From: Alkalispirochaeta sp.
GTDB lineage: Bacteria; Spirochaetota; Spirochaetia; DSM-27196; Alkalispirochaetaceae
Reading direction: 5' to 3'
Length of the DNA stretch: 64,000 bases
Assembly (NCBI GenBank): GCA_965242725.1
Contig: CBDESZ010000017.1
Coordinates: 52,556 to 116,555 of the forward strand
Below the pieces are notes generated by a model. The model worked only from the letters and a program-made list of their open reading frames with translations. It was not told where the DNA came from and ran no database searches. The translations under genes were made by a program, and so were the position numbers. Positions 14,408-26,976 of this stretch are shown in pieces (positions within the stretch are counted from its first letter, which is position 1; every line of letters begins with the position of its first letter).

Positions 14408-15228
14408 ATATTATCCACCAGAAAACCGCCGTCCACCGGAATGGTAACTCCCGTCACAAATCCAGAGGCCTTTCGGCTTGCCAGATAGACCGTCGCACCT
14501 TCCATATCTTCCATTTTTCCAAAGCGACCGAAGGGCGTCCGGTCGATAATCGCCTGTCCCCGCGCCGTCAATTCTCCCGTCTTGTCGTCCGCGACGAGGA
14601 GTGCACGATTCTGATAGCCAAGGAAAAAGCCGGGAGCGATGCCGTTTACCCGGATCCCGTACCGGGCAAGCTCTTTGGCCGTTCCTTCGGTGAGATTTTT
14701 CACCGCGCTCTTGGCGGCGTTGTATGCCCAGACTCCCGAAAGCGCCTTGTAGCTGGTCATGGATGCGAGGTTGATAATCGACCCCGGTTGTTCCGCAGCA
14801 ATCCACTCGCGGGCAAAGATCTTGGTGGGAATGACGAGTCCCGCGAGGAGGTTGAGGGAGAGAACCTTCTCAAAGTTCTTCACGTCAACATCCACAAAGT
14901 CGCCTTTTCCCGTATTCCCTCCGACACCGTTTACGAGAATCGTCGGCATTCCGAGGCGATCACGGGTCTCCGCAAAAGCGCGCACCACCGCTTCCTCATC
15001 GCCGGTATCGACGGTCACGGCGATCACCTTCTCCGCAGGTACGCCCGTCTCTTTCACAAGTGCGTCAGCCGCTTCCTGAACGGGATGATTTGTGCCCCGA
15101 CCCCAGATCGCCACTCTTGCTCCGGACCGTGCGAGTGAGGAAGCCATCGCGGACGGCAATACCCCGGCACCGCCGGTGACAACGGCGATGTCATCATTCA
15201 ATGAGAACATCTGTTCTACATAATTCAT
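14404..15228 (-). CDS. SDR oxidoreductase, probable D-mannonate/fructuronate oxidoreductase
   Basis: TGGAGVL, YNAAK, NGIAPGFF..QNRALL; overlaps the uxaC start. Confidence 0.8.
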   Translation of the reverse strand: MNYVEQMFSLNDDIAVVTGGAGVLPSAMASSLARSGARVAIWGRGTNHPVQEAADALVKETGVPAEKVIAVTVDTGDEEAVVRAFAETRDRLGMPTILVNGVGGNTGKGDFVDVDVKNFEKVLSLNLLAGLVIPTKIFAREWIAAEQPGSIINLASMTSYKALSGVWAYNAAKSAVKNLTEGTAKELARYGIRVNGIAPGFFLGYQNRALLVADDKTGELTARGQAIIDRTPFGRFGKMEDMEGATVYLASRKASGFVTGVTIPVDGGFLVDNI

Positions 15229-15986
15229 ATAATCTCCTTACGAATAACGTGTACTTTTGCCGCTTCAAGAGCGCGGCATTGCTCCTCACTTCCATTGGTA
15301 ATAAGGATCGAAATATCTCCGGGACCGGCGAAAATGCTGAACGCCTGAATCCCGATCTTTTCTCCATCCGCCACGACGATGCTGGTCCGGGCCGCCCCTA
15401 TTGCGGCAGATTTGACCTGAGACTCCAGACTGTTCTGGGACGAAAACTTGCCGTCGAGTGATATTCCGGTCGTTCCGAGAAATGCGTGGTCAAATTGAAC
15501 GCTTCGCAGCGATTGTTCCGCCCAGGGACCGATAAAGCTACCTGCATCGTGTCGATAAGATCCGCCGACGACAAGGAGCGTAATATTAGGCCGGTCCGCG
15601 AGGATATTGAGCACATTGAGACTGTTCGTCACCACACGTAATTCCATCTCCTCCACACACCGGGCAATGCTTTCACAGGTGCTGCCCGAATCGAGGTAGA
15701 TCGTCTCCCCGTGACTGACCAACTCGCTTGCCGCCTGGGCCAGGTATTCCTTGACTTCCCGATTCTTCGCCTGCCGCGCAGGAAGGGACAGGTCGGGATC
15801 GAAACGCTCCGCGGCAACGGCGCCGCCGTGGGTTCGCCTGAGGTAGCCCTGCTCTTCCAGCAGTGCCAGATCCTTGCGAATGGTTACGTCGCTGACTTCC
15901 AGTCGGATCGACAGCTCGGCGACCCTGATACTTTCACGTGCCTTGATGATTGCGAGTATTGCGTTACGTCGTTCCGATGAAGTCAC
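15225..15986 (-). CDS. DeoR/GlpR-family transcriptional regulator
   Basis: VSDVTIRKDL..LE..G...RTHGGA HTH; LDSGST, VTNSL sensor domain. Confidence 0.93.
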   Translation of the reverse strand: MTSSERRNAILAIIKARESIRVAELSIRLEVSDVTIRKDLALLEEQGYLRRTHGGAVAAERFDPDLSLPARQAKNREVKEYLAQAASELVSHGETIYLDSGSTCESIARCVEEMELRVVTNSLNVLNILADRPNITLLVVGGSYRHDAGSFIGPWAEQSLRSVQFDHAFLGTTGISLDGKFSSQNSLESQVKSAAIGAARTSIVVADGEKIGIQAFSIFAGPGDISILITNGSEEQCRALEAAKVHVIRKEII

Positions 15987-16007
15987 TTACGTTTCCTTTG
16001 CAAAAAC

Positions 16008-16036
16008 ACACTATCCCGAAAGTAACACGCTGTCAA
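16008..16036 (-). promoter_or_regulatory. Sigma70-like promoter of the deoR-SDR-uxaC-uxaE operon
   Basis: Minus strand TTGACA (16031-16036), 17 nt, TAGTGT (16008-16013). Confidence 0.6.
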
Positions 16037-16046
16037 ACCATGTGAA

Positions 16047-17327
16047 GTATTCATAAGCCTGTTGATACGGCCGCCAGGAGATCCCGGGCCGCATACCCGG
16101 GAACCCTGACGGTCGTACCTTTCTGCCCCTTCTTCCACCGCACCGGCGGCGTCGCGACCTGTGCAAGAAAGACCTCCCGGATCGATTCCGGTATCGCCTG
16201 CCGGGTCACCCGGTATCGTCGGGTATAGAACCGTTCATTCAACCCGCGGATCAATTCCGACGAGATCCCCGCCGCAGAGGCGTGACTTCCCATCTCTGCC
16301 CGCTTCTCCCGCCACGGCCGCACGCAGTTATGGTTCCACCCGAATACCCACGCCCGATGCATCTGTATCGTTCCATGACGCCCGAAGGCGATCGTCTCCC
16401 GGGTATGTTCCTTCTCCCGGTGCCGCAACAGCCGGTCAACATAGTTTACCGGAAACAACCGGTTCTCCATCGTCCGCGGGGCACTCCCCGCGGTCCGGAT
16501 ATGCGTCAGCTGCCCCGCCGTCCGGAGATGCCGGTAACAGTCGTTCGACCGGAGAACCGATCGATACACCGGGTGTTCGTCGGTGTCGATAACAATCGGT
16601 GCCGTGCAGGTATATCGGACATAGTCGAGTATTTCACGACACAACAGAGAGATAGCGCTCCCCACCGCCCCCTTCGTCGGAGACCATACGGCGTACTTTC
16701 GCCGCCGTCGTCGTCGTTGTCGGGATGTCATGGTACCGCCCCGACGGGTGATGGTATGGGTCATGGTCAGGATCATCTCACCGGTTCGACTGACCACCGT
16801 GGTAATATCGCAGGGGTAGTCCTGGGAGGTCACGAATGACCGCAGGCCGTCGAAGACGACATTCCGGAGGGGTGGCATGGTATCCAGCAGATGGATATGC
16901 CCGATCATTGCCTGACGACCGAGGCGCAGAACGGCGTTTCGTATCGCTGCCGGAGAGACGTGGTAGCGAGTCGCCGCTTCGCGCATGGAAGCGCCGCCGG
17001 TGAGGGTGGTGGAGATCGCCTTGAGGGGGAGGCGTCGTTTGGCGTAGTAGTGCATGGATTCGGTCTGATCACTGAAGGTCTTGCCGCAGGCGATACAGCG
17101 ATAGCGCGGGACGGTTCCGTGGGCCACTGTATCGTAGGAGCCGAAGCGGACGCGCCAACGGGGCGGCGGATGGTGGAAATGGCGACAGGCAGGATTGGAA
17201 CAATGGGTCGGAATGGGCATGAGGGATACCTCCGGGGTACGGATCGGGAACCCGCAAAGTTGGGTTCCCGTCATAACTCCCTACACACCAATGACTACTG
17301 TCACTTTTTCAACACGCTTGTGAATAC
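16047..17327 (-). mobile_element. IS1-like insertion sequence (~1.28 kb) with terminal inverted repeats
   Basis: Left TGAAGTATTCATAAGCCTGTTGA (16043-16065) versus reverse complement of 17309-17331 TGAAGTATTCACAAGCGTGTTGA: 21/23 identical. The repeats flank a single transposase-like ORF. Confidence 0.8.
16051..17220 (-). CDS. IS1-like transposase (Zn ribbon + HTH + RNaseH-like DD[E] domain in one ORF, 389 aa)
   Basis: CSNPAC...RYRCIACGKTFS Zn ribbon, GASMREAATRYHVS HTH, VFDGLRSF, IDTDEH, VNYVDRLLRH, HNCVRPW; GGAGG RBS before ATG 17220. Confidence 0.8.
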   Translation of the reverse strand: MPIPTHCSNPACRHFHHPPPRWRVRFGSYDTVAHGTVPRYRCIACGKTFSDQTESMHYYAKRRLPLKAISTTLTGGASMREAATRYHVSPAAIRNAVLRLGRQAMIGHIHLLDTMPPLRNVVFDGLRSFVTSQDYPCDITTVVSRTGEMILTMTHTITRRGGTMTSRQRRRRRRKYAVWSPTKGAVGSAISLLCREILDYVRYTCTAPIVIDTDEHPVYRSVLRSNDCYRHLRTAGQLTHIRTAGSAPRTMENRLFPVNYVDRLLRHREKEHTRETIAFGRHGTIQMHRAWVFGWNHNCVRPWREKRAEMGSHASAAGISSELIRGLNERFYTRRYRVTRQAIPESIREVFLAQVATPPVRWKKGQKGTTVRVPGYAARDLLAAVSTGL

Positions 17328-17328
17328 T

Positions 17329-19149
17329 TCAAACATTACGCGGTAAGTCGTGTCCCGCTTCCAGCGGATTCTGGGCCTCATAGGGAGAAAGGTAAACCCG
17401 CGGCCGCGGCCGGACGACGATCTCCTCACACACCCGGGCGAGGCGCAGGAGGAGAGCCTCCTCCCAATGGCGTCCCATAAACTGGACCCCGACGGGGACC
17501 TGAGAGTAGATATTGCCGTCCTCGTCGGTTTCGTCAATTTCGTGCCAGAACTTCTTGCTCCGGGCGGTGATAAAACCGGCGGGAACGGAGACCGCGGGAT
17601 ATCCCAGCATATTTGCCGGCACGACGTATCTCATCGTCCTGGTCAACGACGAAAAGTCGGAGACCCCCGACAGGAGGCGGCTTCGATGCAACCGGGGAGG
17701 CAGGTTGGCCGTCGTTGGCGTGGCGATGACATCAACATCGGCAAAGACATTCCGGAAAATTGTAAGCATCCGATTCCGCACCTGCTGCGACTTGATGTAA
17801 TCGCCCGAGGTCAGGTACTTCGCGAGGGCAAGACTTGCCCTGCTTTCATTACTGAAGTCGGTACGGTGATCCTTGAAGGTATCAGAAAGAGCAGCACGCA
17901 TCTCCGTCGAAATGGTGATGAGGTGGGCGATACGTAAGCTGTCGAGTTCCGGAATATCCACATCCACAACTTTGGCGCCCTGCTTTTTCAATTCGTCTAT
18001 GAGATTGCCGGCGGTATCAACCACTTCCGGACGGGCGTGTTCAAACCACGGCCTATAGACGCCAATCCGCAGGCCCTTAATATCGTCCCGGAACCCGTCA
18101 AGATGCGGTCGGGGACGTCCTTGTGACCGGGGATCGTTCCTGTCCGGGCCTGCGATGGTGAGATACATCAGGGCGAGATCGCGGGCATTTCCCGCCATGG
18201 GTCCGACATTTGAGACCGTCCTGGCGAGAGGAAACTCCCCGCGGTCGCTGGTCCTTCCCATAGTGAGCTTCAGCCCGAAAACACCGCAGTAGGCGGCGGG
18301 GATTCGTACCGAGCCGCCTCCGTCGGCACCAAGGGCGGCGGGGCAGATCCCCGATGCGACGACGCTGGCACTTCCGGAAGAAGAACCACCGGGATATCGC
18401 CACGGCGCATAAGGGTTGACGGGCGTGCCGTAAAATGGATTGAGACCGGTCACACCGAGGCCTACTTCATGCATATTGGTTTTCCCCAGAATGATCGCCC
18501 CGGCCTCGCGAAGGCGTGCGACAACCCACGCGTCCTGTTCGGCAGGATGGAGGGTCAGAAAGCTCGTTCCGAGGGAAGTGTTGTAACCGGCAACATCGAT
18601 TTCATCCTTCACGGCGACAGGAACGCCTTCAAGGATCGAGCGACTGCTCCCTTCGGAAAACCGTCGTTCCGATTCTGTCGCCTGCATTCTAATATCGTCG
18701 GCATTCCACCCGATGAATCCGTACAGGGGAGGATTCCCACTGTCCTGATGTTCCAAAACGTGAATGATCCGGTCGGCGACCTGTCCCGGCCGGAGCGTCC
18801 CGTCACGGTATGCCCGGGCGTAGTCCCCAATGGAGGGGAATATCCAGCTGTCCCGGGGGCGCTGAGTCGTACCGATCATTTCCAGAAGCGATTCGTCGGG
18901 CAAAGGATCGGGAGCTTCCTCGCTCCGTGACCGTTCCGTCGTTGTTCCAGCTTCCGATGGATAACCGGTGGAGTACCACACCGGCGCTTCATCGTACCCG
19001 CGTCGCCGGAACGCTTCGATTCCCATGACCGACAGAAAGAGCCGCGCCGGAAGCTTGCCGACGAAAGGATGTTCCAACAACGACGCGAGAAAAAGCAGCC
19101 TTGCCCCTTCAATACGCGGGGTGTCAATATTTTTCAGGTCATAGGCCAT
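17329..19149 (-). CDS. Amidase-signature enzyme, fatty acid amide hydrolase-like
   Basis: GVPVAVKD (Lys), PGGSSSGS, LGADGGGSVRIPA (Ser-cisSer-Lys triad). Confidence 0.88.
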   Translation of the reverse strand: MAYDLKNIDTPRIEGARLLFLASLLEHPFVGKLPARLFLSVMGIEAFRRRGYDEAPVWYSTGYPSEAGTTTERSRSEEAPDPLPDESLLEMIGTTQRPRDSWIFPSIGDYARAYRDGTLRPGQVADRIIHVLEHQDSGNPPLYGFIGWNADDIRMQATESERRFSEGSSRSILEGVPVAVKDEIDVAGYNTSLGTSFLTLHPAEQDAWVVARLREAGAIILGKTNMHEVGLGVTGLNPFYGTPVNPYAPWRYPGGSSSGSASVVASGICPAALGADGGGSVRIPAAYCGVFGLKLTMGRTSDRGEFPLARTVSNVGPMAGNARDLALMYLTIAGPDRNDPRSQGRPRPHLDGFRDDIKGLRIGVYRPWFEHARPEVVDTAGNLIDELKKQGAKVVDVDIPELDSLRIAHLITISTEMRAALSDTFKDHRTDFSNESRASLALAKYLTSGDYIKSQQVRNRMLTIFRNVFADVDVIATPTTANLPPRLHRSRLLSGVSDFSSLTRTMRYVVPANMLGYPAVSVPAGFITARSKKFWHEIDETDEDGNIYSQVPVGVQFMGRHWEEALLLRLARVCEEIVVRPRPRVYLSPYEAQNPLEAGHDLPRNV

Positions 19150-26196: not shown

Positions 26197-26204
26197 CATT
26201 TTAC

Positions 26205-26339
26205 GTATTCACAAGATTGTTGAGCGACACCCGACAAACATCCGTCCCACAACGAATTGCTTGAACAGCATTATCAAATGGGACGTAACGTTCTCCGCGG
26301 AAATGAATTACCTGCAATAATCAACAATCTTGTGAATAC
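26205..26339. mobile_element. MITE-like non-autonomous element (135 bp) related to the IS at 16047-17327
   Basis: Perfect 19-bp inverted repeats GTATTCACAAGATTGTTGA (26205-26223 / 26321-26339), 17/19 identical to the IS right TIR; internal IR CGTCCCA/TGGGACG. Confidence 0.75.
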
Positions 26340-26976
26340 TGCAGACAGATAGCATTTCCGCGACGATCATCGCCGTCGCGCCCCAGATCGTCTTCCCGCC
26401 AAAGTGATAGCTCGGCACCGTGATTGTACCGCGACGGCTGCTGACGACGCGCTCGGTCCGCGTTTCATCAAGTTCACACAGGGGAACCGGAATTATTTCC
26501 GCCACTTCAAGGGGATTCGGCCTCAAGGAACTCCAGGGAAACGGGGACGTTCCGTCGTACACTCCGACCACAGGGGTGATAAGATAGTTGCTCACGTCGA
26601 TGTAAAGCGGTGTCAAAGTACCGGTGACGGCGACGATACCCGGGGAAAGGCCGATTTCCTCCTCCGCTTCGCGGAGGGCGGTATGAATGATCGACCGGTC
26701 ATGCCGCTCCTTCGCGCCACCGGGAAGGGCGATCTGGTTGGAATGGGGGCCCCTGTCGGCGGCACGTCGTATGAACGGGGTTACCAACGAATCTGCCTCG
26801 CTCAACAACAGAAGTACGGCGCTTTGCCGCACCCGTCCCCTGCCGGGTACGGCCGAATCCGTTCTCGTGACTCTGTGGTACGGCCTCCCGGCGGGCATGA
26901 GCATCCTGTGGACCTCCTCTCCGGGCAGCGGGCCCTTCAGCGCGCCCTCGAGGGTGTTGATCAATCGCCGATTCAC
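26308..26976 (-). CDS. Nudix hydrolase, CoA pyrophosphatase (NudL/PCD1-like)
   Basis: SAVLLLL, HSNQIALPGG, TALREAEEEIG Nudix box, NPLEV, IWGATAMI. Confidence 0.9.
   Translation of the reverse strand: MNRRLINTLEGALKGPLPGEEVHRMLMPAGRPYHRVTRTDSAVPGRGRVRQSAVLLLLSEADSLVTPFIRRAADRGPHSNQIALPGGAKERHDRSIIHTALREAEEEIGLSPGIVAVTGTLTPLYIDVSNYLITPVVGVYDGTSPFPWSSLRPNPLEVAEIIPVPLCELDETRTERVVSSRRGTITVPSYHFGGKTIWGATAMIVAEMLSVCSIHKIVDYCR

Follow-up and report, generated by a model that had tools for sequence, protein, structure and literature searches.

A multi-copy, distantly IS1-like insertion sequence in Alkalispirochaeta and the likely loss of its target duplication at one locus

Insertion sequences (IS) of the IS1 family duplicate 8-9 bp of their target, those of the ISL3 and IS1595 families 8 bp. 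Why should an apparently complete IS have no direct repeat at its borders? This question is raised by an element at positions 16043..17331 (minus strand) of a 64,000-nt stretch of DNA from Alkalispirochaeta sp. (assembly GCA_965242725.1, contig CBDESZ010000017.1, positions 52,556 to 116,555 of the forward strand), referred to below as the window. A sequence-only reading had described it as IS1-like, with no visible target-site duplication, and had proposed a divergent IS1-related group with a different integration behavior. The distant relation to IS1 stands. Integration without duplication does not, since 9-bp direct repeats are found at related elements. In our best explanation, to which we assign a probability of roughly 0.6, the locus carries one of five copies of a 1289-bp IS with a distantly IS1-like transposase, and the 9-bp duplication of this copy was likely removed by an adjacent deletion of ~6 kb. 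The missing duplication is best explained by that deletion and not by a new integration chemistry.

Ends, copies, and derivatives of the element

Five copies of the element, which share 98.8-100% identity, were found in the genome on contigs 17, 27, 3, 20, and 30, and an open frame of 409 codons is kept in all of them. Their alignment sets the exact ends at TGAAGTATTC... and ...GAATACTTCA. Similarity among the copies stops at exactly these two positions, and a reading of the ends with 23-nt repeats is therefore correct, while the alternative of ends starting at GTATTC had to be dropped. The two terminal inverted repeats, identified by a repeat search and by sequence reading, are located at 16043..16065 (plus strand), at the 3' end of the transposase gene, and at 17309..17331 (minus strand), upstream of it. 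They are complementary in 21 of 23 positions (91%), and their arms are 1243 nt apart. In agreement with the sequence-only reading, they bracket exactly one open reading frame (ORF; 16051..17274, minus strand, 407 residues from the first ATG), and its stop codon (16051-16053, TCA in the plus-strand sequence) lies inside the left repeat. The outermost three nucleotides, termed tips here, are TGA on the left (16043..16045, plus strand) and TCA on the right (17329..17331, plus strand). The left tip is variable between copies and reads TAA in the contig 3 copy (L003). The right tip, read on the minus strand, serves the neighboring amidase gene as its TGA stop codon, as judged from the copy alignment and the ORF list. 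The window copy is flanked by ...AAACCATG on the left and by AACATTAC... on the right. Rereading these flanks and comparing them by copy alignment confirmed that they are not direct repeats.

Taken together, the element is a mobile, multi-copy, and recently active IS and not a domesticated gene. The idea of an immobile, domesticated transposase gene has a negligible probability: it is refuted by the five near-identical copies at unrelated loci, and the intact terminal repeats, the miniature derivatives, and the lack of synteny of the element in relatives also speak against it. The element was thus rightly taken to be mobile rather than a syntenic single-copy gene.

The window contains a miniature element of 143 bp (26201..26343), recognized by its matches to the pattern of the terminal repeats, which carries the same repeats and has neither a transposase gene nor coding capacity. 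The core of this pattern matched four times in the window, compared to 0.02 matches expected from shuffled sequences; two of these matches are the element's own ends and the other two bracket the miniature element. In the whole genome, 30 matches were obtained (none for the reversed control), including six 143-bp pairs. If three mismatches were allowed, the number increased to 37, namely, the 10 ends of the full copies, the six pairs, 14 lone ends, and one further end located 1.2 kb from a miniature pair on contig 12. The cores of the six pairs are spaced by about 136-138 bp. Their interiors are mutually unrelated, which suggests that the miniature elements may be old.

The genome also harbors a second, related element of ~1303 bp with 24-bp repeats (TTACTGTCCACAACCGTGCGGATG). 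It is present in three copies (contigs 34, 25, and 18; L129, L130, and L131), one of which is bordered by a 9-bp repeat matching in seven of nine positions. A single diverged relative on contig 33 (L128) shares 66% DNA identity with the window element. A scan of genome contigs returned eight loci, mostly truncated by contig ends, and congeners contain related copies at unlinked sites, often likewise at contig ends. A tblastn search against 72,556 plasmids yielded no match. Among contigs from four public runs of one sample, none joined across the element, and neither an empty site nor a circle junction was seen. Two pairs of related metagenome loci (L065/L066 and L095/L104) have 10-12 nt in common outside the inverted repeat, but just on one side, which would mean longer ends in those lineages or else a preferred target.

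Target repeats, the probable deletion at the window locus, and gene ends

Is the lack of a duplication a property of the whole family? We defined the ends of 32 copies by within-genome comparison. The copies represent five related elements: the window element (5 copies), the second element of the same genome (3), and elements of the closed spirochaete genomes G028 (4), G030 (8), and G038 (12). One geometry fits these elements, a conserved core (AGTATTC..., AGTGCC..., AGTGCACC..., or ACTGTCC...) followed by a 3-nt tip and then by a 9-bp direct repeat. For a 3-nt tip and k = 9, the two flanks of one and the same copy agree in at least seven of nine positions in 6 of the 32 copies (9/9 twice, 8/9 once, 7/9 three times), while the same was true for only 1 of 226 mismatched flank pairs. 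When no geometry was prescribed, 3 of 32 own pairs and 2 of 226 cross pairs contained an exact repeat with a length of 8 nt or more. We conclude that the family of related elements does make 9-bp repeats, that is, repeats of IS1 length. The traits of classical IS1 that had been listed as not seen have to be separated: GG ends and a frameshift are indeed missing, but a 9-bp repeat, which is missing at the window copy, is present at some copies of related elements.

The window copy is located between two genes that are far apart in relatives. On its left, a DeoR-family regulator gene (15225..15986, minus strand; ORF list and domain search) starts 56 nt from the element. On its right, an amidase gene (17329..19149, minus strand; ORF list and homologues) has its native length and uses the right tip of the element as its stop codon; the encoded protein ends in PRNV, compared to PRNE in three relatives. 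In G007 and G009, the order of the two flanks is conserved, but 6.2-6.5 kb separate them. The intervening DNA is located next to the DeoR gene, in its entirety in G007 and with its first 1.5 kb in G006, where the examined stretch reaches its limit. In congeners, it represents a plus-strand operon of ~6 kb including a DctM gene for a tripartite ATP-independent periplasmic (TRAP) transporter (L161, G009:C42:15300-21900). This operon DNA was not found elsewhere in our genome, which is 92% complete. In an independent assembly made from the same sample, one contig runs through the element and both flanks without any difference, and the junction is therefore not an assembly artefact. Most economically, these data suggest that this lineage underwent a deletion whose joint is occupied by the element. 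The window copy would then lack a duplication because it is located at a rearrangement junction.

How could such a junction arise? The transposase would bind the 23-bp repeats with its zinc ribbon and helix-turn-helix (HTH), cut at the TG...CA tips by means of D124, D214, and D262, and attach the ends to two target bonds spaced by 9 bp, in analogy to IS1. For IS1, replicative deletions were reportedly described by Turlan and Chandler in 1995, as cited in PMC7986276. By the same analogy, the element itself may have made the ~6-kb deletion by intramolecular transposition into a nearby site. If such deletions occurred repeatedly and were limited by selection, copies lying against neighboring genes and lacking duplications would be the expected result. 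According to the sections of PMC7986276 that treat it, intramolecular replicative transposition deletes or inverts neighboring DNA, and the flanking repeats are lost.

Homologous recombination between identical copies, leading to inversions, deletions, or translocations, would also remove duplications. Two observations would fit this explanation. A second, AT-rich 9-mer is common to two G038 copies, and the 9-mer GACAGCTTG is found both at the end of the left flank of the contig 30 copy (L005 1492-1500) and at the beginning of the right flank of the one on contig 3 (L003 2788-2796), which makes this combination the sole cross pair of 226 with at least seven of nine matches. On contig 3, GACAGCTTG faces GGCCGCTTG in the left flank (7/9). 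But both flanks of this copy are adjacent in G006 and G009, and therefore no flank swap took place there. Moreover, the 9-mer on contig 30 encodes the native C-terminus of its gene, the one on contig 3 matches the conserved CAGCTTGACC in G009, and when the ten flanks belonging to the five copies were all compared with one another, no extended shared stretch was revealed. A flank swap or a carried-along flank as the source of GACAGCTTG was rejected, since both 9-mers look native to their loci. For the same reason, the shared 9-mer rather suggests a target preference. Recombination thus seems an improbable cause of the missing duplications.

We then turned to the genes next to the other copies. 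Six neighboring genes compared at the non-window copies keep their native C-termini, one of them shorter by a single residue. On contig 3, the left gene ends in GVGRL as in G006, and the host TAA occupies the position of the tip. On contig 20, the right gene ends in SRDFR as in G006, and its TAA directly joins an IS end from which 5 nt are missing. The left gene on contig 30 is the one that is one residue shorter than its counterpart in G006; it stops within the tip. On the right side of the contig 30 copy and on the left side of the contig 27 copy, the native stops are 3-4 nt away from the tip. On contigs 3 and 27, the element occupies the place of a stretch that in relatives begins at the stop codon and extends through a terminator-like hairpin. 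The tips themselves vary freely: the outermost three nucleotides differ among copies that are otherwise 96-99% identical, and neither the left nor the right tip agrees between two copies of G038 that show 15 differences over ~1250 nt. Besides the left TAA of L003, the variants include a right TCT in L002 and a right end without 5 nt in L004.

These observations are not restricted to the window element. At 13 of the 64 ends of the 32 copies, a frame of at least 100 codons has its stop wholly in the flank and at most 15 nt away, compared to 145 of 8248 controls (1.8%). At 19 further ends the stop overlaps the tip; in 13 of these 19 cases, no open run of at least 70 codons leaves the far side. 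The ends were those of L001-L005, L129-L131, and L137-L160, while the comparison of C-termini with homologues covered the copies within this genome. Across the family, IS ends therefore adjoin the 3' ends of genes far above chance.

A number of points weigh against the explanation by a 9-bp duplication and its loss through a deletion. The 3-nt-tip geometry was picked after the data had been seen, which makes the geometry-free test the fairer one. No repeat was detected at 26 of the 32 copies, which is a large number to be ascribed to secondary loss. None of the five copies of the window element has a perfect duplication, the best case being the 7/9 match on contig 3, and the clean cases (9/9 and 8/9) belong to elements with only distantly related transposases (profile E about 1e-63 to 1e-67). 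A 9-bp repeat was seen at none of the six miniature elements, although these have diverged. With regard to the deletion, the absence of the operon from a genome that is 92% complete is no proof, and the relatives used for synteny are just 67-79% identical in DNA; gain of the operon in the lineage of the relatives is an alternative, albeit a less parsimonious one. Finally, a precise joint made by the transposase does not predict the host TAA at the tip position on contigs 3 and 20 or the 5 nt missing from the end on contig 20.

Some of these data would also be in line with a normally loose mode of integration, in which the ends join distant or opposite-stagger target positions and the element replaces tens of bases to kilobases, a 9-bp repeat being just one of the outcomes. 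The majority of repeat-less copies would be expected in this case, including all five ~99% identical ones, as would the replacement of the stop-codon-to-hairpin stretch at two sites, the ends that adjoin or overlap stops, and the tips that differ even between the most similar copies. However, clean 9-bp repeats do exist, and selection together with repeated adjacent deletions would lead to the same end state. No empty site of high identity was available to show that insertion and deletion are one event. No DDE transposase is known to integrate in such a loose way. We therefore regard loose integration as unlikely, although less so than recombination, and maintain that the deletion accounts best for the window copy. 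Some difference in integration behavior may nevertheless exist, given that most copies lack a repeat and many lie against stop codons.

A related and equally doubtful proposal goes one step further. The family might replace all of the dispensable DNA between two genes; its ends would then come to lie on the stops of the neighbors, its tips would be exchangeable with the host stop codon, and no duplication would be left. If true, this would be a distinct habit of integration or deletion, either an insertion that replaces its target or a deletion ratchet directed at T-R-A triplets, and the element would systematically remove terminators and intergenic DNA.

For the window copy alone, the outcome is an ordinary active IS with a conventional explanation for its missing duplication. 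If upheld, the mostly absent duplications, the ends at stop codons, and the free variation of the tips would be of interest to transposon specialists, since these three features suggest a frequent, element-driven loss of intergenic DNA and of operons, such as the 6-kb TRAP-transporter operon at this locus.

The transposase and its family placement

The transposase gene (16051..17220, minus strand) encodes 389 residues followed by the stop codon. Its homologues mostly have the same length and start with MP(I/V)P, and the ATG at 17220 is therefore the true start, in accordance with the length given before. A Shine-Dalgarno-like GGAGG (17229..17233, minus strand) was recognized 8 nt upstream of this ATG by sequence reading. 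Folding prediction places a nine-pair leader hairpin (17247..17270, minus strand) between the upstream repeat and the ribosome-binding site. The predicted minimum free energy of the leader is -41.2 kcal/mol (z = -2.5 compared to shuffled sequences), and the region of the start codon is also paired in the predicted fold. A scan of 15950-17420 for sigma-70 promoters and terminators returned no sites.

The protein comprises a zinc ribbon (C7/C12/C42/C45), an HTH (residues ~66-114), and a predicted RNase-H-like domain with D124, D214, and D262, which bears out the zinc ribbon, HTH, and DD motifs previously read from the DNA. All four cysteines as well as D124 and D214 are invariant in a family alignment of 30 members; D262 is near-invariant and replaced by E in three relatives. 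The HTH is indicated by weak matches to Pfam HTH models and by the helices at 66-114 of an AlphaFold2 model, which was built from the family alignment (predicted local distance difference test 86.3, predicted template-modeling score 0.88) and shows a beta ribbon at 23-50. The order of strands and helices in this model is RNase-H-like: D124 ends the strand 120-124, D214 ends the strand 209-214, and D262 is located on the helix 256-269. Based on this topology and on conservation, D124, D214, and D262 probably form the catalytic triad. The best Foldseek matches in the PDB were retroviral integrases (5ejk, E 1.8e-4), the transposase of the IS256-family element ISCth4 (6xg8, 1.9e-4), and Mos1.

To which family does this protein belong? 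No Pfam family matched the 389-residue protein, and PF03400 in particular was without a match. The NCBIfam IS1 model (NF033558) matched residues 55-172 with 23.9 bits compared to a cut-off of 100 (E 3.3e-5; model positions 19-131 of 199). All 30 family members matched transpos_IS1 (best 2.4e-9) and all 30 matched transpos_ISL3 (best 7.8e-9), in both cases without exceeding the cut-off. The model NF050000 (IS1_IS1595_Zn) was matched by 14 of the 30, again below the cut-off. We also aligned the family to a set of IS1 proteins, consisting of eleven single-ORF PF03400 proteins, E. coli InsB, and two spirochaete IS1 frames. The hhalign comparison gave an E value of 0.0023 and a probability of 12.5% over 212 collinear columns, in which the three acidic positions are paired (FDGLRSF/CDEIWSF, IDTDEHPLY/LTTDGLKAY, and NYVDR/SHVER). 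Against E. coli InsB alone, only the TDGWPLY stretch was aligned, with a probability of 0.9%, and a search for 'longer' InsB homologues was uninformative, yielding five chimeric or fused proteins. In the ESM Atlas, the nearest cluster (score 0.98) bears the automatic name IS1 family transposase, and an archaeal cluster at rank 7 (score 0.92) contains 79% proteins with PF03400.

An origin in the ISL3 or IS1595 lineage instead of the IS1 lineage has to be weighed against this. The NCBIfam ISL3 model (NF033550) is the best single match of the window protein (31.9 bits compared to a cut-off of 180; E 7.4e-8, residues 24-124), and Pfam HTH_Tnp_ISL3 was weakly matched by 9 of the 30 members. However, the ISL3 match is confined to the zinc ribbon and HTH, while the match to IS1 reaches into the catalytic domain. 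The catalytic Pfam domains of ISL3 and IS1595 were matched neither by the window protein nor by the 30 relatives. For IS1595, no transposase model was hit at E <= 1 (window protein) or E <= 0.01 (30 relatives), the zinc motif shared with IS1 being the only match. The repeat of 9 bp also differs from the 8 bp of both families. We therefore consider such an origin very improbable.

Judged by sequence comparison, the element is distantly IS1-like and would function as an IS1-type IS, but it fails the curated models for IS1 membership. Its similarity to the IS1 and ISL3 models is weak but consistent. That the similarity to IS1 stays below every curated threshold, with an hhalign probability as low as given above, must also be counted against the IS1 part of our explanation. 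A single search returned 319 homologues at E <= 0.001, mainly from sediment and saline metagenomes, and among the papers searched, none dealt with this group of elements and none named ISMhu11. These elements would represent a large IS1-related group that is not captured by current family models. Lacking a Pfam model and falling below the IS1 and ISL3 thresholds, its members are easily missed or misnamed in annotation.

Comparison with known systems

The element and IS1, represented by IS1A of E. coli, share an N-terminal zinc-binding motif and an HTH, which in the element are followed by a putative counterpart of the compact DDE domain of IS1, and apparently collinear motifs can be aligned between them (TDGWPLY/TDEHPVY, IERHN/YVDRL, and GRKSLSFSK/TRETIAFGR, with IS1 given first). 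In both, the terminal repeats are ~23 bp long. The 9-bp target repeat of IS1 was found in relatives of the element and not at the window copy. In this respect, IS1A of E. coli MG1655 (L169) is instructive: it has no 9-bp direct repeat either, being bordered by ATTGAGGTA and, at the opposite end, by AGCAATTAC. Individual copies of IS1 often have none, and therefore a single repeat-less copy says little.

The differences are equally clear. IS1A measures 768 bp and consists of two frames joined by a frameshift, whereas the element has 1289 bp and one frame of 389 residues. The ends of IS1A begin with GGTGAT and GGTAAT, in contrast to TGA...TCA, beginning with TGAAGT, in the element. Between strands 3 and 4, the transposase of the element has ~45 residues forming two helices (~160-205) that have no counterpart in the IS1 alignment, and its C-terminus is longer than that of IS1 by ~90 residues, which include a conserved PPVRW motif. 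The third acidic residue of the family is mostly D, which is another difference from IS1.

With regard to ISL3, the size (~1.3 kb with one ORF of ~400 residues in ISL3) and the N-terminus with zinc ribbon and HTH are similar, but the ISL3 catalytic domain has no match in the element. Closer in architecture are single-ORF IS1-family transposases with PF03400, such as P0136 (278 residues) from a spirochaete genome. Like the window protein, they are encoded by one unshifted frame, combine an HTH with a following DDE domain, and occur in the same phylum. They differ in that they pass PF03400 and are named IS1 family in their source, while the window family passes no Pfam model and is ~110 residues longer. 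Finally, the IS1 family in ISfinder includes a subgroup of the ISMhu11 type, whose members are longer, contain extra transposase sequence, and have repeats of 0-10 bp. Going by this general description, the elements described here may be likened to that subgroup.

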